Positions 329 to 62,689 of a stretch of DNA of 64,000 nucleotides are shown piece by piece. The notes under the pieces were generated by a model, which saw nothing but the letters and a program-made list of their open reading frames with translations, did not search any database and was not told where the DNA came from. The translations under genes and the position numbers were made by a program. Every line of letters starts with the position of its first letter. The stretch's first letter is position 1. The DNA is from Eledone cirrhosa (Eukaryota): assembly GCA_964016885.1 (NCBI GenBank), contig OZ024749.1:40238001-40302000 (forward strand). The letters are read 5' to 3'.

Positions 329-344
329 GATATATAGATATATA

Positions 345-544
345 GGAACAAGTATGACCCCGACGGCAGAGCTCAAGCCGTTTCGACGGCTAATTCTGGA
401 CTAAATTTAGTCCAGAATTAGCCGTCGAAACGGCTTGAGCTCAGCCGTCGGGGTCCTACTCGTTCCTATTACCCACTCTACTACCCTAAGTATTGAGTAC
501 TTTGGTGCGTTATGGTCCACCTGGTTCCTTACCACATTTCCTTC

Positions 545-548
<4 letters not shown>
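345..548 (+). mobile_element. Family A (TA)n-embedded fold-back element carrying the 3' half of a hammerhead ribozyme (Penelope-like pLTR fragment)
   Basis: Palindrome centred at 405/406. The right arm reads stem II'-GAAA(427-430)-CGGC ttgagctca GCCG-TC(448-449)-GGGGTC, then a tail ending CTTCGTT into (TA)n. About 12 related copies in the window. Confidence 0.75.
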
Positions 549-3177: not shown

Positions 3178-3947
3178 TTACTCTAAACTTTAAATCTCAC
3201 TAACTTCTTACACTACTGAACTACAAACATAAGCAATATAATCATCCCAAAAATATCTTTAACAATTTTGTAAAAACATTCTATCACTGACTTTGTTTAA
3301 CCTTTCTCATAATGAACAAATAATCTTTATTGTTTCTTTTAAATATCGTAATGGCGTCTTATATAGAAGCGATTTTAAAGATAGAATTACATATATCCCG
3401 CTAATAGTCGAAATAGAAACAAAAAGATAATCATTAGTTGATTCAATCCACCATTAATCTTAGCTGCTGTTGTTCTTATAGCTGTAATATTATTTACTTC
3501 ACTCCACAGAGGTTTCTTTGCATAACACAGATACGATATATTTTTAACATGAGTACCATTAAAATTCCATGTTTGACCGCTTCTAACTGTGCCCAAACTA
3601 TTGTAATTTTCAGCCTAGACAAACACCAAACCACATTTCTACACAATCTATTATTATTAACTGTAATTTCCCCAACCCTATTGATTGCCCTTCCATTCTA
3701 ACTGTCTAATTAAAGACATTATTTACTAAAGCAAAGTACAACCTGTAACATCTCACTTCGGAGATCAATATTTACCTTTGTGTTTCAGTAATCTCACCAC
3801 GTCTTATAGGTACGTGGGGGCTATACTGTCAAGAAACTGAACCTAAATCAGGACCTAGTCGTAGTTGGAACCGTATGTTCATTCTAAAGGGTTATAAACC
3901 CCCCCCTCCCCCCAATATTATTTCTGCAATATTATTATTAACTGCAA

Positions 3948-4130
3948 GGGCGGTGAATTGGCAGTATCGGTCGCCATGCTTTGCAGCATAGAGTTACAGC
4001 CTTTTACGGTCTGAGTTCAAATCCTACCGAGGTTAACTTTGCCTTTCATCCTTACAAGGTCGATAAAATAAAGTACCAGTAATGCACTGGGATAATTGCT
4101 AGCCTTGTGCCAAAAGTAGAAACAATTATT
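3948..4130 (+). mobile_element. tRNA-derived SINE, family 1
   Basis: TGGCAGTATCGG A-box-like head, GAGTTCAAATCC B box, conserved TTGCCTTTCATCCTT...GTCGATAAAATAAAGTACCAG core. Confidence 0.85.
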
Positions 4131-4202
4131 TCTGTAAAAACAAGTCTAGAAGTACATTATCATATGGAATTAATTAAGCCATGTATTCTACTGTTTGCTA
4201 CA

Positions 4203-4394
4203 TAATTGTTTCTACTTTTGGCACAAGGCCAGCAATTATCCCAGTCCATTACTGGTACTTTATTTTATCGACCCCGTAGGGATGAAAGGCAAAGTTAACC
4301 TCGGCGGGATTTGAACTCAGAATGGCAAGGGTCGTAACTCTATGCGTCAAAGCATGGCGTCCGACCCTCTACCGATACTGCCAATCCACCACCC
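4203..4394 (-). mobile_element. SINE family 1 with target-site duplication
   Basis: Full copy flanked by CTACTGTTT(G/A)CTACATAAT at 4188-4206 and 4394-4412. Confidence 0.88.
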
Positions 4395-4713
4395 TACTGT
4401 TTACTACATAATAGTGTTTCATTGTAAAAAGAAACCCTTTAATTTGATTCTCCTCCTACTTGACATCCATGCCATTTTCAATGTTTACTTTACAAAGAAA
4501 CTAAACTCCAGAATTTGATTTCTGGTTTCATGTTTACATTTCAATTAAATGTTTATAAAACACTAAAAGCGCATCCGGCTTTTTCCAGATATTCAAGTAA
4601 AGCTGTTCAATGTAAAATCAGAGTAATTCTGCAAGGTAGTCAACATGTGGTTACAGTCCTGTATTAGTTGCAACAACACTGCTCTCTTACATCGCTTCAG
4701 AATCCTTTTGTGT

Positions 4714-7154: not shown

Positions 7155-7366
7155 TGGATCGATCGACTTTCGTCAAATCGGACCGAGGAAACAATGTTTT
7201 CGTCGGTCTTTCCAGTTGCTAATACTATCTATCGGTCGCAACTCCAGGTAGAAGGAGCAACGTGAAATAAAGTCTCTCGCTCAAGGACATAACGCATCAC
7301 CTGGTCCAGGAATCAAACTTACAACCTCAAGATTGTGAATCCAATTCTCTAACCACTCAGCCACAC
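7155..7366 (-). mobile_element. SINE family 2
   Basis: Reverse complement of 1808-2022. Confidence 0.8.
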
Positions 7367-8692: not shown

Positions 8693-8888
<196 letters not shown>

Positions 8889-8989
8889 TATACATATATA
8901 TATATATATGTATATACATATTCAGATACACACTCATATATATATATGTATATATATATATATGTGTGTGTGTGTGAGAGATAGAGAGA

Positions 8990-9249: not shown

Positions 9250-9432
9250 AATAATTCTCCATAATTGAAGATATATGTCTGATAAAACTATTCCAGAGAG
9301 TAATGGAGACAAGACATCTCCTTCAAGTACACCACTCGGGATTGTTGATATTTTTTTAAAGGAATCCCTCGTTGACTGCAACAGTTTCACTGCTTGGGCT
9401 TAGAAACTCGTATAAAATACAACCATTATCAA
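9250..9432 (-). pseudogene. LINE RT fragment
   Basis: Peptide SGVLEGDVLSPLL matches the GxxQGDxLSP RT motif. Confidence 0.5.
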
Positions 9433-9620
9433 TGGATTGGCAGTATCGGTAGAGGGTCGGACGCCATGCTTTCCAGCATAGTTACGTCCCTTTACGATCT
9501 GACTTCAAATCCCGCCGAGGTTGACTTTGCCTTTCATCCTTACATGGGGGGGGGGATAAAATAAAGTACCAGTAATGCACTGGGTAATTGCTGGCCTTGT
9601 GCCTAAAGTAGAAGCAATTA
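9433..9620 (+). mobile_element. SINE family 1
   Basis: Matches the family 1 consensus. Confidence 0.85.
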
Positions 9621-10021
9621 TCAAACATGGCGGTTTTCAGATGTGAGGAGATCATGTGATGTATCTCCTTGTCGAAAAAAAAAAACATTGCAGAACTACA
9701 CATACACACACACACACAAACAAAGACACGCAAGCACACTCACAGAATCGCAAACACCCAAACGCATGTACCAACAAGCACACAGACGTCACAGACTCCT
9801 CACACCCACAAACTCACATATACACACACTTCCGGTTCATTTTCATCGGCACAGACTGAACAAGTTGGTCGATATTGAACCAATGGAACGTACGTAGCTG
9901 GTATGGCGCCGTTGTAGTAACTCACCTGAATAATTATATTCAAACTCGCCCTACGGACTTGAGTTTGTCTACACCTTGGATTTATACCACCTACTATACC
10001 ATTACTACACATATATATACA

Positions 10022-10101: not shown

Positions 10102-10592
10102 GGCTACCTATGTGGCCTGGTCTGTGGGTCACTGGCGGGATTGATATGTCACATGAGACACCGCCATACAGAGAGCTTTATATCCATGTAGGAGAACCCC
10201 TACCGATGCGCTGAACGAGTGTGAACTTTTTAGTCCAGCCAGCGACTTAAAAACTCTGGTACAAACACTGCACTTGTGACAATTATTGACACATAGTGCT
10301 GGGCCCATGGTACCATGTGACGACAAGTGCAGAGAGATCTCCAGATATAAAGCAATGCCTGTGCCGTGAAGCTTTTATAGTGAGCAAAGGCACTGCACAA
10401 AGCCAGTCCCACTCTCTTAACCAAGATGATATTTACCAAAAAGAAGAACAAGTCAACATCATTGGATACCATCAGGGTTGCAGGTGTTATATCAGAGTTT
10501 TCCTTCTCCTAGAATTCTGCCTTGACAAAGGCTAAGGGGTCATCTCTCCCGGTGATTTTTGATGACCATTGACTCTTTAGAGCTCCTTTGCT
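10098..10592 (-). mobile_element. Non-autonomous RTE-derived element, subfamily 2 (5'-truncated)
   Basis: Near-identical to 22644-23263. Encodes CSVCTRVFKSLAGLKS, the C-terminal zinc-finger remnant typical of RTE ORF ends. Confidence 0.75.
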
Positions 10593-15050: not shown

Positions 15051-15286
15051 TAGCGAGAATCGCATTTCGGCTAGTGGAAATTAGCGAAAAACAACTTCCG
15101 AATTGTGTGGCAAGCGCTCGATAGATACGAGTGTACTAGAGCAATAAACATACGTTAAAAGGGGCATATACACTGAGACGATGGTTAAACCATTAATCGC
15201 AAAGCCAAAAAAGCGAGCAAGCTATTCTATATATATAAACACATATCCATACATCCTTATGTGTATATATATATAATATATAAAAA

Positions 15287-15460
15287 GGATCGATCGACTT
15301 TCGTCAAATCGGACCGAGGAAACAATGTTTCCGTCGGTCTTCCTAGTTGCTAATACTATTTATCGGTCGCAACTCCAGGTAGAAGGAGCAACGTGAAATA
15401 AAGTGTCTTGCTCAAGGACATAACGCATCGCCCGGTCCAGGAACCGAACTCACAACCTCA
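15287..15460 (-). mobile_element. SINE family 2 (5'-truncated)
   Basis: Reverse complement of 1855-2022. Confidence 0.8.
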
Positions 15461-20061: not shown

Positions 20062-20154
<93 letters not shown>

Positions 20155-20156
<2 letters not shown>

Positions 20157-20335
20157 CGAAGGAAATGTGGTAAGGAACCAGGTGGACCATAACGCACCAA
20201 AGTACTCAATACTTGGGGTAGTAGAGTGGGTAATAGGAACCAGTAAGACCCCGACGGCTGAGCTCAAGCCGTTTCGACGGCTAATTCGCCGTCGAAACGG
20301 CTTGAGCTCAGCCGTCGGGGTCTTACTGGTTCCTA
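20155..20335 (-). mobile_element. Family A fold-back element
   Basis: Tail at left, palindrome centred near 20284, TA runs on both sides. Confidence 0.78.
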
Positions 20336-20415
20336 TATATAAATATATATATAAACATATATATATAGAGAGAAAATAGAAAAAACGTGGATGTATATAT
20401 GCATATATATGTGTG

Positions 20416-21706: not shown

Positions 21707-22643
21707 GTATATATATGTCAGAGAGTGGGATTGGCTCAGTGCACAGTCTTTCCTCACTTTAAAAAATATCTTCACGCACAGGCATTGCACGATAGAATTA
21801 ATTAATAATTATTAATAATGGTATATCGTGCAATGAAGAAGCAGCCATCATCATCATGTATATATGTATATATACATATATATATATATGTGGGTGTGTG
21901 TGTGTGTGTGTAGGTATGTATGTATGTTTTCTATATTCTTCATCGTATTATATAGATTTCTGTATTCCTTTCTTTACAATCTGAACTTCCTTTCTACGTC
22001 AGTCAAAACTGAATGTTTTTTGTATACTAAAAACAGAATCTTCCATTAATAAAAAAAAATGTACATCACATGTACGTACTTTCATACGTACATATATATA
22101 TATATACATATATACATACATATATACATACATATATACATACATATATACGTGCATATATTCATACATACATACATATATTCATACATACATACATGCA
22201 TACATACATACATACATACATACATACATGCATACATGCATACATACATACATGCATACATACATACATACATGCATGCATGCATGCATACATACATACA
22301 TACATACATACATACATGCATACATACGTACATACATACATGCATACATACATACATACATGCATACATACATACATACATTAATGCATACATACACACA
22401 CATACATGCATATATACATATATACATACACACATACAAGCATATATACATTCACACGTACATACACACACACATACATACATACATACATACATACACA
22501 CACATACATGCATACATACATACATATATGCATACACACATACAAACATATGTACATTCATACGTACATACACACATACATACATACATACATACATACA
22601 TACATACATACATACATACATACATACATACATACATACATAC

Positions 22644-23263
22644 ATGGTGGTGGCTGCCAACTCGTTTTCGAGTACGGCCACTACTTTATATCCATGTAGT
22701 AGAACTCCTACCGATGCGCTGAACGAGTGTGACTTTTTAGTCCAGCCAGCGACTTGAAAACTCTGGTACAAACAGTACACTTGTGACAATTATTGACACA
22801 TAGTGCTGGGCCCATGGTACCATGTGATGACAAGTGCAGAGAGATCTCCAGATATAAAGCAATGCCTGTGCCGTGAAGCTTTTATAGTGAGCAAAGGCAC
22901 TGCACAAAACCAGTCCCACTCTATTAACCAAGATGATATTTACCAAAAAGAAGAACAAGTCAACATCATTGGATACCATCAGAGTTGCAGGTGTTATATC
23001 AGAGTTTTCCTTCTCCTAGAATTCTGCCTTGACAAAGGCTAAGGGGTCATCTCTCACGGTGATTTTGGATAGCCATTGACTCTTAAGAGCTGCTTTGACA
23101 GGTTTTGTTTTTAGTCCTGCAGGATGTCCAAAGTCACCCTCCTCACCAAGAAACCTTGGTGGGGTTGCCAGTTTAGTCGCCAACGACCCGACCATGAGAC
23201 AGGTTGTACTGGGATACATGTTACCAGTAGCACCAACTGGTGACCTGACCTGACCTGACCTGA
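22644..23263 (-). mobile_element. Non-autonomous RTE-derived element, subfamily 2 (full length)
   Basis: RTE-like 5' UTR (..CTAGGAGAAGGAAAACTCTG..) joined to an RTE 3' end. (ATGT)n on both sides. Confidence 0.78.
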
Positions 23264-23477
23264 CATACATACATACATACATACATACATACATACATAC
23301 ATACATACATACATACATACATACATACATAGAGAGAGAGAGTTCTGGTTCTGTCGTTTCTATAATACAAAATAAATAAATATATATATATATATATATA
23401 TATATGGGGCGGTGCTACTAATGTTGCTGGGTCTGTAGAGAAATATATTGGTAGAAAAATGATATAGACAGACAACC

Positions 23478-30972: not shown

Positions 30973-31163
30973 AGGGCGGTGGATTGGCAGTATCGGTGGA
31001 GGGTCGGACGCCATGCTTTCCAGCACAGTTACGTCCCTTTACGATCTGAGTTCAAATCCCGCCGAGGTTGACTTTGCCTTTCATCCCTACGGGGTCGATA
31101 AAATAAAGTACCAGTAATGCACTGGGTAATTGCTGGCCTTGTGCCTAAAGTAGAAACAATTAT
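30973..31163 (+). mobile_element. SINE family 1
   Basis: Full-length match. Confidence 0.88.
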
Positions 31164-31327
31164 TATATACATACATATGTATTGTATATGTATATATGTA
31201 TGTATATATGTGTATATATATTTACATATATAATATATAATACACACACATATATATATATACATGTATATATATATATACACACGCATATATACATACA
31301 TGCATATATACACATATATATATATAC

Positions 31328-34875: not shown

Positions 34876-34886
34876 ATATATATATA

Positions 34887-35064
34887 GGAAAAAGTTTGAC
34901 CATGACGGCAGAGCTCAAGCCGTTTCGACGGCTATTTCTGGACAGAAATGGCTTGAGCTCTGCCGTCGGGGTCAAACTTTTTCCTATTACCCACTCTGCT
35001 ACCCTAAGTATTGAGTACTCTGGGGCGTTATGGTCCATCTGGTTGATTACCATACCTCCTTCGT

Positions 35065-35065
<1 letters not shown>
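34887..35065 (+). mobile_element. Family A fold-back element
   Basis: Palindrome plus tail, TA-flanked. Confidence 0.75.
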
Positions 35066-35101
<36 letters not shown>

Positions 35102-40260: not shown

Positions 40261-40293
40261 GGGATTGATAGCGTATTTATACCTACTATAATA

Positions 40294-40480
40294 TTTGTTT
40301 CTACTTTTGGCACAAGGCCAGCAATTATCCCAGTGTATTACTGGTACTTTATTTTATCGACCCCGTAAGGATGAAAGGCAAAGTTAACCTCGGCGGTATT
40401 TGAACTCAAACCATAAAGGGCCGTAACTCTTTACTGCAAAGCATGACGTCCGACCCTCTACCAATACTGCCAATCCACCT
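40294..40480 (-). mobile_element. SINE family 1 with TSD
   Basis: ACCTACTATAATA at 40281-40293 and 40477-40489. Confidence 0.88.
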
Positions 40481-40508
40481 ACTATAATAATTCTATTCAT
40501 TATTATTA

Positions 40509-40722
40509 TTGATTGGCAGTATTGGTAGAGCGTCAGACGCCATGCTTTGCAGCATAGAGTTATGGCCCTTTACGTTCTGAGTTCAAATCCAGCCGTGGTT
40601 AACTTTGCCTTTCATTCTTACGGGGTCGATGAAATAAAGCACCAGTAATGCACTGGGGTCGATTTAATTGACTTTCCCCTTTCCCCAAATTGCTGGCCTT
40701 GTCCCTATAGTAGGAATCATTA
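40509..40722 (+). mobile_element. SINE family 1 (long-tail variant)
   Basis: Contains the GGGGTCGATTTAAT.GACTTTCCCC insert. Confidence 0.85.
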
Positions 40723-41197: not shown

Positions 41198-41235
<38 letters not shown>

Positions 41236-41325
41236 CACACACATACATACATACTTATACATACATATACGTATATATATGTATACATATATATATATAT
41301 ATACATACATACATACATATATATA

Positions 41326-41932
41326 TGGTGGCTGCCAACTCGTTTTCGAGTACGGCCACTACTTTACATCCATGTAGGAGAACCCCTACCGATGCGCTGA
41401 ACGAGTGTGACTTTTTAGTCCAGCCGGCGACATGAAAACTCTGGTACAAACACTACACCTGTAACAATTATTGACACAGTGCTGGGCCCATGTTACCATG
41501 TGACGACAAGTGCAGAGAGATCTCCAGATATAAAGCAATGCCTGTGCCGTGAAGCTTTTATAGTGAGCAAAGGCACTGCACAAAGCCAGTCCCACTCTCT
41601 TAACCAAGATGATATTTACCAAAAAGAAGAACAAGTCAACATCATTGGATACCATCAGGGTTGCAGGTGTTATATCAGAGTTTTCCTTCTCTTAGAATTC
41701 TGCCTTGACAAAGGCTAAGGGGTCATCTCTCCCGGTGATTTTGGATGGCCATTGACTCTTAAGAGCTCCTTTGCCCTTTGACAGGTTTTGTTTTTAGTCC
41801 TGCAGGATGTCCAAAGTCACCCTCCTCACCAAGAAACCTTGGTGGGGTTGCCAGTTTAGTCGCCAACGACCCGACCATGAGACAGCTTGTACTGGGATAC
41901 ATGTTACCAGTAGCACCAACTGGTGACCTGAC
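41326..41932 (-). mobile_element. Non-autonomous RTE-derived element, subfamily 2
   Basis: Near-identical to 22644-23263. Confidence 0.78.
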
Positions 41933-42066
41933 ATACATACATACATACATACATACATACATACATACATGTATATATGCATGCATATATACATGTATGT
42001 ACATACATGTATGCATGTATATATGCATACATACATGTATGTATGCATGTATATATATATGTATGC

Positions 42067-43239: not shown

Positions 43240-43334
43240 AATTCCACGACAAATTGGCCTATATATATATAGTGAGTGTGTTCTGTTATTAATTCTGGCA
43301 ATATTATTACAACAATATGACCCTTCCCAAGTAT

Positions 43335-43390
<56 letters not shown>

Positions 43391-43392
<2 letters not shown>

Positions 43393-43577
43393 CGAAGGAA
43401 ATGTGGTAAGGAACCAGGTGGACCATAACGCACCAAAGTACTCAATACTTGAGGTAGTAGAGTGGGTAATAGGAACCAGTAAGACCCCGACAGCTGAGCT
43501 CAAGCCGTTTCGACGGCTAATTCAGAATTAGCCGTCGAAACGGCTTGAGCTCAGCCGTCGGGGTCTTACTGGTTCCT
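43391..43577 (-). mobile_element. Family A fold-back element
   Basis: Palindrome centred near 43523; tail at left. Confidence 0.78.
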
Positions 43578-43736
43578 ATATATATATAGATATAGATATA
43601 GATATAGATATATTCCATACACTGGTTGAAAATCCGTCCTATGAAAGGTACGTCCTCGAGTACAGCTTGGACTGAGTGCTCTACCAACTACGGATATAGC
43701 CTTCCGGTTTTTTTTACCACAGTATATATATAAATA

Positions 43737-43790
<54 letters not shown>

Positions 43791-43818
43791 ATCAAAAGAT
43801 GGTTAAATGAGTTCCATG

Positions 43819-43889
43819 TATTTTATTATGCGCATTTCAAAAACAAATATCATCATGCAATAACATTTGTGTTTTCATCAGATAAAATA
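43819..43889 (-). ncRNA. Minimal type I hammerhead (family C, inverted arm)
   Basis: Reverse complement of 44016-44086. Confidence 0.8.
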
Positions 43890-44015
43890 GGAGGACATGA
43901 TATGAAGGTTAAAAACACTTGTGGATGGTGCAGTTTTAAATCAACATATCAACATATATGTTGATTTAAAACTGCACTATCCACAAGTGTTTTTAACCTT
44001 CATATCATGTCCTCC

Positions 44016-44086
44016 TATTTTATCTGATGAAAACACAAATGTTATTGCATGATGATATTTGTTTTTGAAATGCGCATAATAAAATA
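44016..44086 (+). ncRNA. Minimal type I hammerhead (family C)
   Basis: TATTTTAT-CTGATGA-AAACACAAAT...ATTTGTTTTT-GAAA-TGCGCA-TA-ATAAAATA. 8-bp stem I; palindromic stem III. Confidence 0.85.
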
Positions 44087-44210
44087 CATGGAACTCATTT
44101 AACCATCTTTTGATCTTATATATTATATATACTCCAGTCCTACGAAACTGTAGAGTGCTTCTTATCCGATATCTGCATTGCTTTATTGTACTACAATAAA
44201 ACTCACCTCC

Positions 44211-44286
<76 letters not shown>

Positions 44287-44542: not shown

Positions 44543-44800
44543 TGTGCAGTGCCTTTGCTCACTATAAAAGCTTCACGGCACAGGCATTGCTTTATATCTG
44601 GAGATCTCTCTGCACTTGTCGTCACATGGTACCATGGGCCCAGCACTATGTGTCACTAATTGTCACAAGTGTAGTGTTTGTACCAAAGTTTTCAAGTCGT
44701 TGGCTGGACTAAAAGTCACACTCGTTCAGCGCATCGGTAGGGGTTCTCCTACATGGATCTAAAGTAGTGGCCGTACTCGAAAACGAGTTGGCAGCCACCA
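44543..44800 (+). mobile_element. RTE-derived subfamily 2, 5'-truncated
   Basis: 3' 260 bp of the element, with (ATGT)n tail. Confidence 0.75.
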
Positions 44801-45073
44801 TGTATGTATGTAGGTAGGTATGTATGTATATATATATGTATGTAGGGATGTATGTATGTAGCTATGTATGAATGTATATATGTATTATGTTGGTATATAT
44901 GTATGTAGGTATGTATGTATCTATGAATGTATATATGTATGTAGGTAGCTATGTTTGTGTGTATGTATATATGTATGTATGTAGGTAGGTAGGTAGGTAT
45001 GTATGTATGAATGTATATATGTATGTATGTGTATATGTATGTAGGTATGTACGTATATATGTATGTATATATG

Positions 45074-45108
<35 letters not shown>

Positions 45109-45524
45109 GTATCTATGTATGTAGGTATGTATGTATGACACCCTAAATACTTTGATGACATTTCTAAATGTTGACTCCAACGGAGATGTCATAATCTCAC
45201 ATGGTACATTGACCTCCTCAGTACAGATAGAATCGACCACAGCTCTCAGTTGAAACAACACAGTTCTCCAGCACTGGAGTCCGTGGGAAGTTACTGCATC
45301 AGAGGATTAAGTGTTTCCTGATCAACAGAACCGGAGATGTTGTGATCCATGGAGTGTACTTAAACCAATCCAAATTCCACTGTGGAAATATATCAAACTA
45401 AAGATAAAAATGTCAAACTTTTGGCTAAGAAAAAAACAAACCTGTCAACTCTCCCCGTCCGTCAGGGAGATATCCCACCTACTTTGGGGTGGGTGAGAGA
45501 TGTCGTCTCTTATGAAAATAGATA

Positions 45525-45632
45525 TAAAGGCAAAGTTAACGCCGGCGGGATTTGAACTCAGATCATAAAGGGCCGTAACTCTATGCTGCAAAGCATGGCG
45601 TCCGACCCTCTACCAATACTGCCAATCCACCC
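45525..45632 (-). mobile_element. SINE family 1, 5' half
   Basis: Head and B box only. Confidence 0.8.
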
Positions 45633-45653
45633 ACTATAATATTTCTATTCATT

Positions 45654-46857
45654 GTGGATTGGCAGTATCAGTAGAGGGTCGGACGCCATGCTTTCCAGCA
45701 TAGTTACGTCCCTTTACGATTTGAGTTCAAATCCCGCCGAGGTTGACTTTGCCTTTCATCCTTACGGGGTCGATAAAATAAAGCACCAGTAACGTACTGG
45801 GGTCGATTTAATCGACTTTCCCCTCCTCCAAATTACTGGTCTTGTGCCTATACTAGAAATCATTGGATTGGCAGAATCGGTAGAGAGTCGGACGCCATGC
45901 TTTGCAGCATAAAGTTACGGCCCTTTATGATCTGAGTTCAAATCTCGCCGACGTTAACTTTGCCTTTCATCCTTACAGGGTCGATAAAATAAAGTACCAG
46001 TAATACACTGGGTAATTGCTGGCCTTGTGCCTAAAGTAGAAACAATTATTTAAATAGTGGATTGGCAGTATCAGTAGAGGGTCGGACGCCATGCTTTCCA
46101 GCATAGTTACGTCCCTTTACGATTTGAGTTCAAATCCCGCCGAGGTTGACTTTGCCTTTCATCCTTACGGGGTCGATAAAATAAAGCACCAGTAACGTAC
46201 TGGGGTCGATTTAATCGACTTTCCCCTCCTCCAAATTACTGGTCTTGTGCCTATACTAGAAATCATTGGATTGGCAGAATCGGTAGAGAGTCGGACGCCA
46301 TGCTTTGCAGCATAAAGTTACGGCCCTTTATGATCTGAGTTCAAATCTCGCCGACGTTAACTTTGCCTTTCATCCTTACAGGGTCGATAAAATAAAGTAC
46401 CAGTAATACACTGGGTAATTGCTGGCCTTGTGCCTAAAGTAGAAACAATTATTTAAATAGTGGATTGGCAGTATCAGTAGAGGGTCGGACGCCATGCTTT
46501 CCAGCATAGTTACGTCCCTTTACGATTTGAGTTCAAATCCCGCCGAGGTTGACTTTGCCTTTCATCCTTACGGGGTCGATAAAATAAAGCACCAGTAACG
46601 TACTGGGGTCGATTTAATCGACTTTCCCCTCCTCCAAATTACTGGTCTTGTGCCTATACTAGAAATCATTGGATTGGCAGAATCGGTAGAGAGTCGGACG
46701 CCATGCTTTGCAGCATAAAGTTACGGCCCTTTATGATCTGAGTTCAAATCTCGCCGACGTTAACTTTGCCTTTCATCCTTACAGGGTCGATAAAATAAAG
46801 TACCAGTAATACACTGGGTAATTGCTGGCCTTGTGCCTAAAGTAGAAACAATTATTT
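45654..46857 (+). repeat. Three tandem copies of a 403-bp SINE heterodimer (6 SINEs)
   Basis: Units start at 45654, 46057 and 46460 and appear identical. Confidence 0.92.
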
Positions 46858-46909
46858 CTTTCAATGTCATCACAGATGTTTACAGTAATTAACAAATATT
46901 ACTAAATCA

Positions 46910-49915: not shown

Positions 49916-50030
49916 GTGTATGTGTATACATATACATCTATATATATTTATATATATATGTGTGTGTGGTTGTGTGTGTGTGTGTGTGTGCGTGTGTGTA
50001 TGTGTATACATATACATATTTATATATATA

Positions 50031-50226
50031 AGTTTTAATATAGATGAGATTCTACAGGACTAGAACTGTTTCATTCATTAGAAATCATCAGGAATCTCCT
50101 GATGATTTCTAATGAATGAAACAGTTCTAGTCCTGTAGAATCTCATCTATATTAAAACTTTTATACTCTGCTATGTATTGAGTACCTTACTTACTGTGGT
50201 TACCTCCGATTCAACCCGGAATAACG
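50031..50226 (+). mobile_element. Family B fold-back element
   Basis: 50031-50092 is inverted at 50098-50159. Tail extends to 50226. Further copy at 60718-60858. Confidence 0.8.
50046..50098 (-). ncRNA. Type I hammerhead (family B), intact
   Basis: GAGATTC-CTGATGA-tTTC taat GAAt-GAAA-CAG ttctagtc CTG-TA-GAATCTC. 7-bp stem I; GUA site. Confidence 0.85.
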
Positions 50227-50234
50227 TATATATT

Positions 50235-50268
<34 letters not shown>

Positions 50269-50419
50269 AATGTGTGTATGTACATATACATCTATATATG
50301 TGTGTGGGAGGTGTACACCTACTATTTCGAGAGCGTTAAACTAATATATATCATTGTACACTCTCCTGTGTTGTTTTTTCCTCGTTGACTTTCTTTTCGC
50401 ATATATACATATATGTATG

Positions 50420-50490
<71 letters not shown>

Positions 50491-50544
50491 TGCCAAGACT
50501 GGAATTGAACCATCAGCACAGTTGAGGTATGTGAGACATCAATT

Positions 50545-50610
50545 TATTTTATCTGATGAGGACGTACTGAGGAAACAGCACAGTACCTCTGAAATATATA
50601 TAATAAAATA
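50545..50610 (+). ncRNA. Minimal type I hammerhead (family D)
   Basis: TATTTTAT-CTGATGA-GGAcGTACTG..CAGTACcTCT-GAAA-TATATA-TA-ATAAAATA. Confidence 0.82.
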
Positions 50611-50651
50611 TATTTAATTACATGAATTTCTATATTTATTAATATTTTGAA

Positions 50652-50713
<62 letters not shown>

Positions 50714-50882
50714 TTGTATATATATATATATACATAACAAAGAAGGTGTGGTAAGATATCAGGTGGATCATAACGCACCAGAGTACTCAATACTAAGGAT
50801 AGCTATCCAGATGGCTTCCAAAAATAATGGTCGCATTTTAAAAGGGTACGTCAAAGCTTATTTGTAAAACTGTTATATATTG

Positions 50883-50947
50883 TATTTTGTCTGATGAAGG
50901 CATACCATAATTTAATTTGGTATCCCTGAAATATGTATAATGAAATA
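50883..50947 (+). ncRNA. Minimal type I hammerhead (family E, element ~50805-51078)
   Basis: TATTTTGT-CTGATGA-AGGcATACCA..TGGTATcCCT-GAAA-TATGTA-TA-ATGAAATA. Stem I has two G-U pairs. Confidence 0.8.
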
Positions 50948-51075
50948 AATATGGTTTTATAAATATAGCTTCCATTTATTAATATCGTATATCTACTCCA
51001 AATACTTGTCGAGTGCTTTATATCAGTTATAAAAATATTTACTTGTTGTATCCCAACAATTTTAAATAGAACTTT

Positions 51076-51160
<85 letters not shown>

Positions 51161-51283: not shown

Positions 51284-51690
51284 TGCACAGTTTCAACAAA
51301 TTCCCCTTCTACTCACCGCCTATCAATCTCACCACGACCACCACCATCGTATCCAAACACTTGCCCTCCATCCACACACACACACCACCACTACCATATA
51401 TACACTTGCCTTCGCCCTCATTGATCCCCACCACCATCATGTACACACACTTTCACTCACCCTCCTCGCCACCACCATATCCATGTACTCACAAAGTTGT
51501 TCGTTTTCTGAATAGATCTGTCCGAATACTTGATGCAACACAGAGTGGAACAGGATGAATAAATACCAGTTATTAGAGGCGGGAAAAGGTAGTAAATATA
51601 GGTAAAATAGTGCGAAGGGAGAGAGGAATGAGGGAGGGATGGAAGAAAAGATGGAATGAAGATATATATATATTTATATATATGTTCTCC

Positions 51691-51761
51691 TGTTTTATCT
51701 GATGAAAACACAAATATTATTGCATGATGATGTTTGTTTTTGAAATGCGCATAATAAAATA
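51691..51761 (+). ncRNA. Minimal type I hammerhead (family C, copy 51684-51887)
   Basis: Same fold as 44016-44086. Differences (TGTTTTAT; stem II ATATTAT..ATGATGT) retain pairing through G-U pairs. Confidence 0.82.
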
Positions 51762-51992
51762 CATGGAACTCCTTTAACCATCTTTTGATCTTATATATTA
51801 TGTATACTCCAGTCCTACAAACTGTAGAGTGCTTCTTATCCGATATCTGCATTGCTTTATTGTACTACAATAAAACTCACCTCCTACATATATTTATATA
51901 TATGTATATTTGTAGTGCACCTGAGCACTGTACACAATCATTTTAATTATATATATATATATAATTATATATATATAGCATATATATATAGC

Positions 51993-52950: not shown

Positions 52951-52991
<41 letters not shown>

Positions 52992-53043
52992 CGAAGTCGA
53001 AACGGCTTGAGCTCAGCCGTCGGGGTCTTACTTGTTCTGTTCC

Positions 53044-53106
<63 letters not shown>

Positions 53107-53109
53107 TAT

Positions 53110-53548
53110 ATAAACGGAAAAAATGAAACGAAATTTCATTTATATATATACATACTACTGTACGTCTGTATACATATATGTATGTACGTATAAAGTAACA
53201 GCCGTACTAAGAGTGATAAATGAAATTTCGTTTCATTTTTTCCGTTTATCATTTTCGGTACCCCGGCCGATTAACTCACTCGATATGCAAATTAGGCTGC
53301 TCAGCCGTTAATATGCATAAGGAAAGTATATACTTTCAGACGTTCAATCATCTGGCAGGAAGGTATACGTTGCTGACGATAGCTAATAAGCTTGAAACTA
53401 GTACAGCGTTCCTTTGTCAGTGTTGAACAAATGAGCAACGACGGTTGCTAGACACTACGGCTTAATACGGGATGTTTGTTTACAAACACACCGAGCATTA
53501 TAATAAATGTTCGGTGAATCCATACGTACATATATATATGTGTGCATG

Positions 53549-53594
<46 letters not shown>

Positions 53595-53640
53595 CTACTG
53601 TACGTCTGTATACATATATGTATGTACGTATACATACTTA
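53110..53640 (+). mobile_element. Family J retrozyme-like tandem unit (~440 bp) with a short 5' inversion
   Basis: The block at 53151 recurs at 53591. The copy at 54746-55005 spans the end-to-start junction. Confidence 0.7.
53367..53409 (+). ncRNA. Minimal type I hammerhead (family J)
   Basis: ACGTTG-CTGACGA-tAGCT aata AGCTt-GAAA-CTAG-TA-CAGCGT. Palindromic stem III; GUA site. Confidence 0.88.
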
Positions 53641-53663
53641 TATTTAAATATATATATATATAT

Positions 53664-53812
53664 CAGAATTACTCACCAGAGTACTCGATACTTGGTGTAA
53701 TGGACTGGGTCCTGAACTTTTCATATATATATATATGGGGGGGGGAGTCAGGACCCTGACGGCTGAGCTCCCCTTTTTACAGCTCAGCCGTCGGGATCCT
53801 GACTCTTTCCCT
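53664..53812. mobile_element. Family A fragments (tail plus stem III fold-back)
   Basis: GAGTCAGGA.CC.GACGGCTGAGCT...AGCTCAGCCGTCGGGATCCTGACTC. Confidence 0.65.
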
Positions 53813-54054
53813 ATATATGTGTATATATATGTGTGTGTGCGTATATATGTATGTATATATATATATGTGTGAGTGTGTGTGTGTGTGTGCGTATATATGT
53901 ATGTATATATATATGTGTGTGAGTGTGTGTGTGCGTATATATGTATGTATATATATATATATGTGTGAGTGTGTGTGTGTGTGTGTGCGTATGTATGTAT
54001 ATATATATATGTGTGTGTGTGCGTATATATGTATGTATATATATATATGTGTGT

Positions 54055-54090
<36 letters not shown>

Positions 54091-54458
54091 TGTTTGAAGC
54101 ATTGTGGAATATGAAAATGATAAATGGGTATATTTGGGAAGCTGTACAAATGCAAGTGGGTTAGAATATTTCAAGATAGTTATCTGTTATATCTGTTAGC
54201 TATTATATTTAGCATGTCAAATGACCATGTTGAGGTTTCCTCATTGTCTCACGATAAGGAATATCCAAAAACAACTTTTCAAGAGCAGAAAATATAAAAA
54301 CAACAACAAAAAAAAAACAAGAAAACAGTGAACAGGGTTATGTGTTGTTCCTCTTTAAAGTCTTGACTTCATTTTAAAGACAGCAGGGAGGTTTTGATAA
54401 GAGATGTTAGACGTGGAATGTTGTCTGTTAAACGTATTATAATCTCTCTCTCACTGCC

Positions 54459-54534
<76 letters not shown>

Positions 54535-54543
54535 TCTCTCTCC

Positions 54544-54581
<38 letters not shown>

Positions 54582-54640
54582 AACACATTATATTTATATC
54601 ATACACGTACACACACAAACACATATATATATATATAATT

Positions 54641-54698
54641 TTAGCAATGACTTCTACGGGACTAGAACTGTTTCGTTCGTAGTAAATCATCAGGAAAC

Positions 54699-54700
<2 letters not shown>
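54641..54700 (-). ncRNA. Degenerate hammerhead, family B relative
   Basis: GTTTC-CTGATGA-TTTACTACGAAC-GAAA-CAGTTCTAGTCCCG-TA-GAAGT. Confidence 0.6.
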
Positions 54701-54746
<46 letters not shown>

Positions 54747-55025
54747 AAAGGGCAACGATGGCTGCTAAACACTGTACGGCTTAATTCGGGCTGTTTGTTT
54801 GCAAACAAACCGAACATTATAATAAATGTTCGGTAAACCGATACGTACATATATATATATGTGTGCATGTATGTATATATATATATATATACATACTACT
54901 GTACGTCTGTATACATATATGTATGTACGTATACATACATACTTACGTTTAAGTAACTGCCGTACTAAGAGTGAGAAATGAAATTTCGTTTCATTTTTTT
55001 CCATTTATATATATATATATATATA

Positions 55026-55375
55026 TCTTTCACCGTATTTTTGACTAAAGGAATTTTAGCCTGATAATGGGGTTTAGAACCCTCAGATAAATGGAAAAAG
55101 ATGAGTATTGACGTACATGGGAGTCGAACCCACATCTTTGGTTATCGCGACCAATGTGCTACCATTACACTGTGTTGGTGTAATGGTAGCACAGTGGTCG
55201 CGATAACCAAAGATGTGGGTTCGACTCCCATGTACGTCAATACTCATCTTTTTCCATTTATCTGAGGGTTCTAAACCCCATTATCAGGCTAAAATTCCTT
55301 TAGTCAAAAATACGGTGAAAGCTATTCTATTTTCTAATTTCAAACCTGCTCACTGTTTCAAAACATACTTACTTG
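55026..55375 (+). mobile_element. TA-embedded fold-back element with a tRNA-like head
   Basis: ~145-bp arms centred near 55174. A box TGGTGTAATGG, B box GGTTCGACTCC (55218-55228). Related fragment at 61925-62022 (minus). Confidence 0.7.
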
Positions 55376-55437
55376 ATATATATATATATATATTCGTAAG
55401 AAATCATCAGGAAACTGTATATATATATATATATATA

Positions 55438-55606
55438 GGAAAAAGTATGACCCCGACGGCAGAACTCAAGCCGTTTCGACGGCTATAGCCGTCGAAACGG
55501 CTTGAGCTCTGCCGTCGGAGTCATACTTTTTCCTATTACCCATTCTACTACCGTAAGTATTGAGTACGTTATGGTCCATCTGGTTCCTTACCACATTTCC
55601 TTCGTT
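55438..55606 (+). mobile_element. Family A fold-back element
   Basis: Centre CGGCTA|TAGCCG. Flanked by inverted family B fragments at 55392-55418 and 55630-55655. Confidence 0.78.
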
Positions 55607-55717
55607 ATATATATATATATAAATATATGCAGTTTCCTGATGATTTCTTACGAATATATATATATATATATATACCTTTATGTACACAAACATGCGCATG
55701 GTTATGTGAGAATGTCA

Positions 55718-57903: not shown

Positions 57904-58093
57904 TGTGGATTGGCAGTATCGGTAGAGCGTCGGACGCCATACTTTGCAGCAAAGAGTTACGGCCCTTTATGGTCTAATTTTAAAATTCCGCCAAGGTTAA
58001 CTTTACCTTTCGTCCTTATGAGGTCGATAAAATAAAGTACCAGTAATACACTGAGATAATTGCTGGCCTTGTGCCAAAAGTAGAAACAATTAT
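57904..58093 (+). mobile_element. SINE family 1
   Basis: Consensus match. Confidence 0.82.
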
Positions 58094-58189
58094 TGCTTCA
58101 GTGTGTGTGTGTGTGTGTTTGTGTATGTGCGTGTATGTGCATGTGTGTGTGTGTGTGTGTGTGTGTGGTTGTGTGTGTGTGTGTGTGTT

Positions 58190-59150: not shown

Positions 59151-59284
59151 AATGATAAGATTATAATTCGCATGTACGAATTGTAATAAATATTATCTCT
59201 TTATATATAGATAACGCTCTATTTTCTTGACACTTTTGCTACGCACACACATATATCTATCTATCTCTCTCTCTATATATATAT

Positions 59285-59465
59285 AACGAAGGAGTTGTGG
59301 TAAGGAACCAGGTGGACCATAACGCACCAGAGTACTCAATACTTAGAGTAGTAGAGTGGGTAATAGGAAAATGTATGACCCCGACGGCAGAGCGTGGTAA
59401 TTCTAATTTAGTCCAGAAATAGCCGTCGAAACGGCTTGAGCTCTTCCGTCGGGGTCATACATTTT

Positions 59466-59504
<39 letters not shown>

Positions 59505-59572
59505 AGTAAATTAGAATCTGAGTACTCTGGTGCGTTATGGTCCATCTGGTTCCTTACCACTCTTCCTTCGTT
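59285..59572. mobile_element. Family A fold-back copy (59285-59468) plus a tail fragment (59503-59572)
   Basis: Family A motifs, TA-flanked. Confidence 0.75.
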
Positions 59573-59590
59573 ATATATATATATATAATG

Positions 59591-61296: not shown

Positions 61297-61387
61297 TTAA
61301 TAAATAAAAAAATATAAATACCCAATATTCCTCTACATTCTCAATATATATATGTATATATGTATGTATATATATATATATATATAT

Positions 61388-61898
61388 AAAGAATGAATAA
61401 TAACAGGTAGACATCATAAAAAGGTAATTTATTCCGTGTGCTTACAAATGTTTCCACGGTGGTACTACAGCCTAGTTATGCTATGTGCAAATTTACAAGT
61501 ATTTGCAGAACTCAAATATCCAATGCTATGACCACTGTGCAAATTTACAAGTATTTGCAGAACTCAAATATCCAATGCTATGACCACTGTATCCTCAGAG
61601 GATACAGTGGTCACAGCATTGGATATTTGAGTTCTGCAAATACTTGTAAATTTGCACATAGCATAACTAGGCTGTAGTACCACCGTGGAAACATTTGTAA
61701 GCACACGGAATAAATTACCTTTTTATGATGTCTACCTGTTATTATTCATTCTTTATATACACTCCGGAATACAGAAGGATCAGGAACTAAGTTTCTTCAA
61801 CAATTCTTCCATAACTCGTAGAGTAACCTCTTACCGTACGTCAACCATATGCAGTGTAGTAATTAACCATTACTACATCTTGGATAATCCTATACCTA
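61388..61898 (+). mobile_element. Family I fold-back element; hammerhead with long stem II
   Basis: Palindrome centred at 61597, inside the CTGAGGA box (intact on the minus strand, 61592-61598). GAAA-CATTTG-TA at 61688-61699. 52-bp tandem duplication in the left arm. Confidence 0.72.
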
Positions 61899-62036
61899 AT
61901 ATATATATATATATAGAAATGTAAACTATCGCCGTATTTTGACTAAAGAAATTAAAGAAATTATTTAGCCTGGTAGTGGGGTTAAGAACCCTCGGAGAAA
62001 TGGAAAAAGATGAGTATTGACGATATATATATATAT

Positions 62037-62222
62037 AACGAAGGAAGTGTGGTAAGGAACCAGGTAGACCATAACGCACCAGAGTACTCAATACTTAGGG
62101 TAGTAGAATGGGTAATAGGAAAATGTTCAACACCCCGACGGCAGAGCTCGAGCCGTTTCGACGGCTATTTCTGGACCGTCGAAACGGCTCGAGCTCTGCC
62201 GTCGGGGTCTTGAACATTTTCA
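62037..62222 (-). mobile_element. Family A fold-back element
   Basis: Palindrome plus tail. Confidence 0.78.
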
Positions 62223-62689
62223 TATATATATATATATATTAGCAAACACCAAACACACAAAGTCACGAACTAAAATATAATACAAGTCAAGTACAGTGTT
62301 CGATTTAATTCATTTTACCCTCCCCAAAACAATTGCTGGCCTTGTTCCTAAATTTGAAATATATACTTGACATGAACTTTATTTAGTCAACCACTGAAAC
62401 ATGAAAGCCAAAGCTGATCTTCGCAGGATTTAAATTCAGAATGTAGAAGGCCATAACGAAAACGAAAATATATATGTTTAGAGTAAAAGCTAAGTCTTTT
62501 CAAGTCGCCATCTCTTGGAAAACTGTTGATTCTCGTGTTTATATATTAGGGCTACGTAGTGCGTCTTGTTACTGTGGAGTTTCACCTGCGCACTCACAGG
62601 ATCATGAGACAAGTCATAAATGTGTGTGTGTGTGGAATTTCCAGAGATGTAGCTACCCTACATCTCTCATCAAACACCGAAATGCCAAA

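Follow-up and report, generated by a model that had tools for sequence, protein, structure and literature searches.

A 64,000-nucleotide stretch of a 3.0-Gb animal genome (hereafter the window), rich in (TA)n, contains a fold-back at 43785-44214. In a self-comparison of the window, positions 43773-44131 are self-inverted at 97%, and a tail is found on one side only, as had been claimed in an earlier note on this DNA. The two arms differ by one substitution across about 160 nt of unique arm sequence, a type I hammerhead motif is present in both, and the tail (44131-44214, about 83 nt) follows the right arm only. The parts are as follows:

43739-43788, no strand: left (TA)n target flank (from the sequence)
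43785-43949, minus strand: family C untailed arm, with the mirror hammerhead core at 43881-43835
43950-43955, no strand: junction scar between the two 5' ends, a short local duplication (from the sequence)
43956-44214, plus strand: family C tailed arm, from the initiator-like 5' hotspot to the distal end
44016-44086, plus strand: type I hammerhead motif (motif scan; stems I and II in the MFE fold), with CUGAUGA at 44024-44030, stem II, GAAA at 44067-44070 and a 2-bp stem III
44116-44130, plus strand: UA-rich proximal end zone, the modal end lying 4-7 nt before the hairpin
44131-44156, plus strand: conserved RCTC...GAGY hairpin, with ACTC at 44131-44134 and GAGT at 44153-44156 (covariation, weak folding energy)
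44131-44214, plus strand: tail, the first part of the element 5' UTR (in locus L033 the tail continues into the 5' UTR and ORF)
44182-44200, plus strand: second hairpin inside the tail (from the fold)
44215-44280, no strand: right (TA)n target flank (from the sequence)

The hammerhead, whose activity is putative, is predicted to cut after 44078; an Rfam search at the gathering score gave no hammerhead match, its sole match being tRNA-like. Position 43956 is the predicted transcription start of family C, and the RCTC...GAGY hairpin is a predicted docking site for the RT. The untailed arm has its 3' end in a UA-rich tract about 7-14 nt before the hairpin, which corresponds to the secondary end class described below. 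Other copies of these families in the window are:

342-546, plus strand: family A fold-back, tail right, arms differing in the subfamily block
8827-8889, plus strand: family A solo untailed copy, spanning the 5' hotspot to the proximal end
20144-20336, minus strand: family A fold-back, tail left
34884-35077, plus strand: family A fold-back, tail right
43392-43579, minus strand: family A fold-back, tail left
50025-50226, plus strand: family B fold-back, tail right, hammerhead core at 50099-50121
50489-50657, plus strand: family D solo untailed copy, beginning at an ACT hotspot immediately after (TA)n
51684-51880, plus strand: family C solo tailed copy
52991-53046, plus strand: untailed arm of family A preceded by an inverted stub of 6 nt from the tail end (52991-52996)
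55435-55618, plus strand: family A fold-back, tail right
59274-59470, minus strand: family A fold-back, tail left
61383-61830, plus strand: family I fold-back, with ACTC after the symmetric end and GAGT about 57 nt further
62025-62225, minus strand: family A fold-back, tail left

The junctions quoted earlier for families A, B, C, D and I are present in the sequence. Solo copies were also said to end at the same internal site, and this holds for the A copy at 8827-8889 and the D copy at 50489-50657; the third case, the A copy ending near 53045, carries the inverted stub and is not a solo copy. At 43339-44280, 50000-51100 and 53000-55700, clusters have been built by different families nesting in each other's (TA)n flanks.

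Which elements produce these structures? Judged from sequence motifs, the fold-backs are head-to-head insertions of Penelope-like retroelements (PLEs) with Hydra-type ORF motifs, in (TA)n. Long copies of family C encode a YRDDGL RT core followed by an IY...YFG/YIG domain in one ORF, and families A and B also link to ORFs with both; these motifs were read by eye, and the element call rests on such readings because a Pfam search of two ORFs gave no relevant match. The Hydra clade has a C-terminal GIY-YIG-like domain, DKT, RWK, CxCX5C and CxxC/CxH motifs, canonical hammerheads, (TA)n insertion and a short ORF (PMC8557442). Here, DKT replaces DKG in C (HSDKTNN) and in B (SSDKTKN), this region not being recovered for A, and the CxCX5C linker reads CNCPAKNKC in C, CNCPDRSSC in A and CNCLNKETC in B. 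Family C also has CNLC (CxxC) and CLH (CxH) near the end of the endonuclease. At the RWK position B has RIRWR and C has RLRWI (the latter translated by eye), RW being present with a different third residue (RWR or RWI), and the ORF is short as in the clade; the tail structure of the clade is not described in the accessible part of that source. A canonical hammerhead motif in the pLTR and insertion into (TA)n are both present, the hammerhead core of family A being split by a long stem II loop and its CUGA box altered in several subfamilies. Nearly all pairs have (TA)n on both flanks (48/50 and 53/54 for A, 28/30 and 29/30 for B), and 37/40 C pairs have it on the tail side. The match to the Hydra clade is one of motifs, hammerheads and (TA)n targets.

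Long copies also show how the parts are arranged. Locus L033 has, in order, the upstream 3' UTR, pLTR, tail, 5' UTR and ORF, a partial tandem that forms the pLTR; in tandem copies the tail sequence, i.e., the start of the 5' UTR, comes after the pLTR, and in two read-through copies of family B (L167 and L182) the tail runs on into the element body. In loci L031 and L034 an untailed pLTR comes after an RT-endonuclease ORF that is truncated at its 5' end, and both are preceded by a short tailed arm in inverted orientation. An inverted, 5'-truncated copy adjoining the 5' end is found in these two loci and in 126 sampled pairs. Locus L035 is a multiply rearranged ORF-bearing insertion.

Copies were located genome-wide with exact core patterns common to both arms, at 1,382 places for C, 10,545 for B and 42,002 for A, and because the patterns are common to both arms the search is blind to the tail. 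The C sample consists of 86 of the first 100 places listed, and the A and B samples of 30 supplied loci plus 20 regions each, mostly picked among listed pairs, so that arm-level fractions lean toward pairs, tail status within pairs being unselected; 604 kb of contiguous sequence, window included, were added. Another C sample, obtained by ranking against a query with a tail, served for family discovery alone and is not part of the pair counts. It includes a two-tailed fold-back (L019) as well as a large inverted duplication (L010/L029, L032). At 3755-7857 of L032 lies a 3.7-kb inverted duplication with both arms tailed and the flanks included, which is probably a later duplication.

Arms of family C have two sharp 3' ends that bracket the hairpin, as the earlier note had proposed. 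Out of 113 arms, 60 end at most 17 nt after the core and 50 at +97 to +101, the others ending in between (two, at +82 and +86) or reading on into the element body (one). The interval between the two peaks contains nine TA dinucleotides, and the 200 nt that follow contain another 18; with TA so plentiful both between and beyond the peaks, the ends are not proportional to TA frequency, and this simpler account of them is rejected. The ends of A and B arms are likewise bimodal; loose alignment of A and B arms inflates the number of untailed B ends, and the end intervals given below come from separate measurements. The tail is about 65-95 nt long, its distal end lying 40-60 nt past the RCTC...GAGY motif.

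The two ends are not combined at random. A genome-wide count for family A, based on three patterns that cover A subfamilies with the GTTCC junction and short centres, found 10,818 fold-backs with one tail, 79 with two and 82 with none, i.e., 98.5% one-tailed versus 50% expected, where independent choice would yield about 5,490 two-tailed and untailed ones. Two listed matches of the same-type classes are plainly something other than fold-backs, and the count of exceptions is, if anything, too high. An origin of two-tailed and untailed pairs from two RNAs more often than for the others found no support: about 5 of the 49 listed two-tailed pairs are clearly discordant by eye, similar to one-tailed pairs. 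One-tailed pairs make up 40/40 of the sampled pairs in C, 54/55 in A and 30/31 in B (124/126 overall), the A and B exceptions being two-tailed; among the 40 C pairs, 39 combine a tail with no tail and one combines a read-through with no tail.

An initial description in which the inverted arm stops and the direct arm continues proved to be a circular effect of labelling, since tails of family A fall on either side equally often genome-wide (5369 versus 5449). Nor is the continuing arm the long, ORF-bearing one: mostly the opposite is found, the longer arm of C pairs being untailed in 19 cases and tailed in 5, with 16 ties. The corresponding counts are 14 versus 6 in B and 13 versus 15 in A, the latter without bias. 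In the C sample from contig C1, the tailed arm is on the left in 29/40 pairs and on the right in 11, a skew not shared by family A. Rare copies have (TA)n between an arm and a tail of the same orientation (window 59471-59580, L267, L293-L300), with 13 pattern matches genome-wide, and locus L231 holds one three-unit array of untailed A copies.

To what extent is the proximal end tied to the hairpin? When fold-backs bordered by TA on one side but continuing on the other were sought in an unsupervised way, 196 cases in 58 clusters were obtained, of which 45 were left after the removal of 13 simple-repeat clusters. RCTC starts within about 10 nt of the symmetric end in 22/45 clusters, versus 7.3% of other windows. 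The outer pair of the RCTC...GAGY motif is A-T in 10 clusters and G-C in 8, and mixed in none; these 18 covarying cases are not independent events, as the clusters are related to each other and two of them may represent a single family. The modal end interval includes the position 5 nt before the motif in 18/21 clusters, and that 6 nt before it in 17/21; measured by family, the untailed end lies 5-8 (A), 5-6 (B) and 4-7 nt (C) from the motif. Secondary proximal ends occur at a longer TA tract 7-17 nt upstream in 11/39 C and 7/30 B pairs, so this ruler is not absolute, and the copy at 43785-44214 belongs to the secondary class. The hairpin folds no better than shuffled sequences in five of six families (z from -0.05 to -0.75; -3.1 in the remaining one). 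Support for the ACUC hairpin of the earlier note thus comes from the covariation of its outer pair and not from folding energy.

No RCTC was found at the junction in 23/45 clusters, some of which are not PLEs, and at least two multi-copy families have a one-sided extension without RCTC. One of these, represented by L179 (13 fold-backs in the sample), has a GCT...AGC variant at the same position, and another, at 43290-43339 of the window, also forms multi-copy fold-backs. A fold-back with a tRNA-like centre lies at 55023-55325 (Rfam match at 55117-55171) and 61900-62022, bordered by (TA)n on one side and extended, also on one side only, by 51 nt that lack RCTC; it is possibly a SINE-like element mobilised by the same route.

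The centre of the fold-backs, which had been thought to vary freely or to sit in hammerhead stems, has one peak in each family. Among C arms, 39/110 start 124-131 nt upstream of the core, or 39/71 of those within 200 nt upstream of it; 110/149 A arms start at 16-30, and 48/87 B arms at 23-30, all these windows having been chosen after inspection of the data. Each of these 5' peaks falls on an initiator-like sequence, and the start site of a further family group resembles it, being TCACT-like. By eye, B and A have a TATA-like box some 30 nt upstream of the start, which is not clear in C. The labels initiator-like and TATA-like follow the consensus sequences of these promoter elements. The centre peak is the predicted 5' end of the RNA, and initiator- and TATA-type motifs have been reported in a rotifer pLTR (PMC3846280). 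In B and C the hotspot precedes CUGA, directly in B and by about 68 nt in C, and in A it falls within the loop of stem II; this varying position relative to the hammerhead explains why variable centres were seen at first. Junctions thus fall at the predicted transcript 5' end rather than in ribozyme stems. Several long copies of family A (L191, L204, L207, L220 and L124) carry a TATA-like box and an initiator-like site within the long stem II loop, and from a start inside this loop transcripts and short copies would be without the CUGA half.

Hammerhead cleavage was considered as a source of the 5' ends of family C and ruled out, as none of the 110 arms starts within 4 nt of the cut site. C junctions show overlaps of 1-7 nt or short templated insertions, and since these scars vary among copies, each copy was joined anew.

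Do the two arms come from one cDNA or from two? Nine untailed arms (five C, four A; read by eye) are preceded by tail-only inverted stubs that share no overlap with their partner. The stubs are 6 to about 78 nt long, and that of an A case (L120) stops exactly at the proximal site. In 12/40 C pairs the untailed arm exceeds its partner in length by over 100 nt, the largest difference being 2.2 kb. Such stubs and unequal arms are not possible by one strand copying itself. The arms nevertheless seem to come mostly from one template lineage: a 10-letter subfamily block is identical in 36/55 A pairs versus 9.6% at random, and the tailed arm is of the same subfamily in 20/20 elements chosen on the untailed arm alone. 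This sharing could be inflated by the timing of subfamily bursts or by later gene conversion. The other 19/55 A pairs, including the window copy at 342-546, differ in the block (six of them at 2-3 letters), which implies two templates or later change at times.

An assembly or read fold-back artefact is hardly credible as a source of these palindromes: the flanks of the fold-backs are not mirrored, the arms differ in the tail and at single bases, the scars differ among copies, and both the head-to-head joints and the proximal end are seen in independent Illumina reads and short-read contigs. In raw reads from three Illumina runs, loose ends into (TA)n lie at 44123, 44126 and 44131 (247, 227 and 186 reads at the last), the head-to-head joint is found in all three runs (22, 12 and 4 reads), and the joints of short-read contigs fall at 43956-43958. 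Reads aligned to an A fold-back break at its variable centre and are uninformative. The reads and contigs with these joints derive from other copies and individuals, the copy at 43785-44214 itself not being bridged by an independent long read, which is the one point left to the artefact.

Beyond the geometry of the DNA, every step of the following account is something we infer. A mechanism has to accommodate this geometry, the 98.5% one-tail rule, the 5-nt spacing with its covarying outer pair, a single 5' hotspot per family, the shared subfamily of the arms and the stubs. Probably both nicked (TA)n strands each prime a cDNA, at two start sites flanking the predicted hairpin, within a complex of unequal halves. 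The element protein, likely as two copies with unequal roles, would dock on the hairpin and assign the two target strands to separate start sites, with TA microhomology of 1-4 nt adjusting the precise base. Both cDNAs would extend in the direction of the RNA 5' end, where the distal cDNA would likely displace, or stall against, the proximal one, which would give shorter tailed arms and stubs. Short copies would run off at the pLTR transcription start, so that the centre is fixed, long copies would arise from a downstream tailed pLTR, and the cDNA ends would be joined via microhomology or templated insertion; hammerhead cleavage would not be needed. Against this, the distal end may just have been passed down from donor copies that already terminated in tail and (TA)n. 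The claim of two priming events, one distal and one internal beside the hairpin, is favoured by the one-tail rule, the stubs, the unequal arms and the scarred junctions, and it agrees with in-vitro work that the earlier note had not cited (PMC11167929). Its description as twin-priming-like fits less well, since the two cDNAs, unlike those of L1, usually copy the same sequence. A bolder version, which we hold only tentatively, makes double priming the default reaction, with an asymmetric RT dimer clamped on the RCUC/GAGY hairpin and cDNAs started 5 nt upstream and 40-60 nt downstream of it on the same RNA, the second by strand displacement, a single RNA thus being copied twice into a head-to-head insertion. 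If true, a single event would account for the tail of PLEs, for their inverted pLTR and for the great number of short fold-backs.

One-sided tails and identical arms would equally be expected if RNA or cDNA folded back at a local palindrome and copied itself, the GIY-YIG nuclease then cutting one arm at the AT-rich site beside the hairpin and so removing one tail. Several C junctions do lie on a palindromic hexamer at the hotspot (4/40 with a clean 6-nt overlap), the ATT at the proximal site of A and C is the motif that the Poseidon nuclease cuts in its own pLTR (PMC11167929), and the idea is close to published proposals of self-priming and "EN-mediated resolution" (PMC3846280, PMC8557442). 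It is nevertheless unlikely, because tail-only stubs are separated from their partner by a gap in the element sequence that copying by fold-back would have filled, the 5' ends of arms may lie kilobases apart in the ORF, solo untailed copies and subfamily-discordant arms occur, and zero-loop palindromes and templated insertions resemble end joining. A related route, in which the tailed cDNA snaps back from its 3' end to serve as its own template and then transfers to the target on reaching the first TA-rich stretch, would yield one tail and identical arms automatically and is compatible with the many short symmetric copies. It needs the untailed arm to be contained in the tailed one, which fails in 19/40 C pairs and in all stubs, and the main end of family B has 1 nt of microhomology though a longer TA tract lies nearby; very improbable and contradicted as a general route, it could remain a minor one for short symmetric copies.

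Classical twin priming on one transcript with two pLTRs starts from the premise that the RNA runs into UA repeats at the end of the 3' pLTR and that the cDNAs copy different parts of it, the untailed arm coming from the end of the 3' pLTR and the tailed arm from the 5' pLTR plus tail. This fits L031 and L034, with their ORF-bearing untailed arm and short tailed arm, and could explain discordant arms. Untailed arms, however, stop at the same 5' hotspot as tailed ones, even when solo or with a stub, tailed arms can reach 1.2-2.6 kb, and the conserved spacing from the hairpin is given no role, which makes this account improbable.

Many ingredients of priming from both (TA)n strands are not new: a tail on one end, two start sites and both-strand priming are already published (PMC8557442, PMC3846280, PMC11167929), and with the individual ingredients known the surprise is limited. 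An inverted copy and a tail of 30-40 bp, often at one end only, are described for EN+ PLEs (PMC8557442), a tail optionally present on one of the inverted pLTRs was noted with self-priming as a proposal (PMC3846280), and further PLE context is available (PMC4209133). Compared with the published EN+ units, the tail here is longer (about 65-95 versus 30-40 nt), one-sidedness is near-obligate (98.5%) where theirs is found "often", the inner boundary carries a conserved covarying hairpin, and most copies stop at an initiator-like site; none of these features appears in the accessible parts of those descriptions. The fixed ends first put forward as new are thus long-known PLE tail boundaries; what is new is their strict pairing and the hairpin ruler. 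A literature search, whose scope stopped short of the 1997-2008 subscription Penelope papers and most supplements, returned no obligate one-tail pairing, no RCTC/GAGY ruler and no start-bounded centre.

The closest experimental system is Poseidon of the green anole, for which both target strands are cut and extended in vitro, two RT start sites bracket the tail, ribozyme cleavage is not required, a protein dimer is predicted and targets are AT-rich (PMC11167929). On the reading proposed above, the families described here would resemble it in having two start sites near a stem-loop that bracket the tail, in the extension of both strands and in doing without ribozyme cleavage, and their targets too are AT-rich. 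Poseidon belongs to another clade, its start sites are reported with no difference between strands, its AC-rich stem-loop lies inside the ORF whereas the one here is in the 5' UTR, and neither the pairing of sites nor the origin of the inverted copy is addressed. Inverted fragments, microhomology joins and, on the proposed reading, priming by both target strands are shared with L1 twin or dual priming (PMC2837659), and the nine stub cases lack an internal segment, as twin-priming products typically do; in L1, as far as the accessible part of that source goes, the fragments are free of overlap and the internal site is a matter of opportunity, whereas here the site is fixed, the cDNAs usually overlap fully and there is no poly(A). 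Non-LTR retrozymes (10.64898/2026.07.22.740005) are also short non-coding hammerhead sequences related to PLE pLTRs. As described in the accessible part of that work, they form head-to-tail tandem arrays, whereas the units here are dispersed, solo or head-to-head, and long A, B and C copies, unlike retrozymes, encode an RT-endonuclease themselves.

The origin of the inverted pLTR and of the one-sided tail is named as an open question in PMC8557442, with self-priming, endonuclease resolution and internal initiation as proposals. A pairing rule over about 11,000 insertions, a compensatory cis-element and a start-bounded centre lead to specific mutations that are testable in vitro. Tens of thousands of short fold-back repeats would then be by-products of one reaction, and not a separate element class.

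Other repeats share the window with these families. An abundant SINE-like family of 150-190 nt (45526-46860, 3947-4395, 40290-40721, 9424-9621, 30978-31167 and 57905-58094) occurs as dispersed copies, a three-unit tandem array of 403 nt and inverted pairs, its (TA)n flanking being unlike that of the PLEs. A dispersed family with a tRNA-like head lies at 1812-2022, 7156-7366 and 15228-15458, and a second dispersed family at 10176-10590, 22291-23330, 41202-42008 and 44543-45137.
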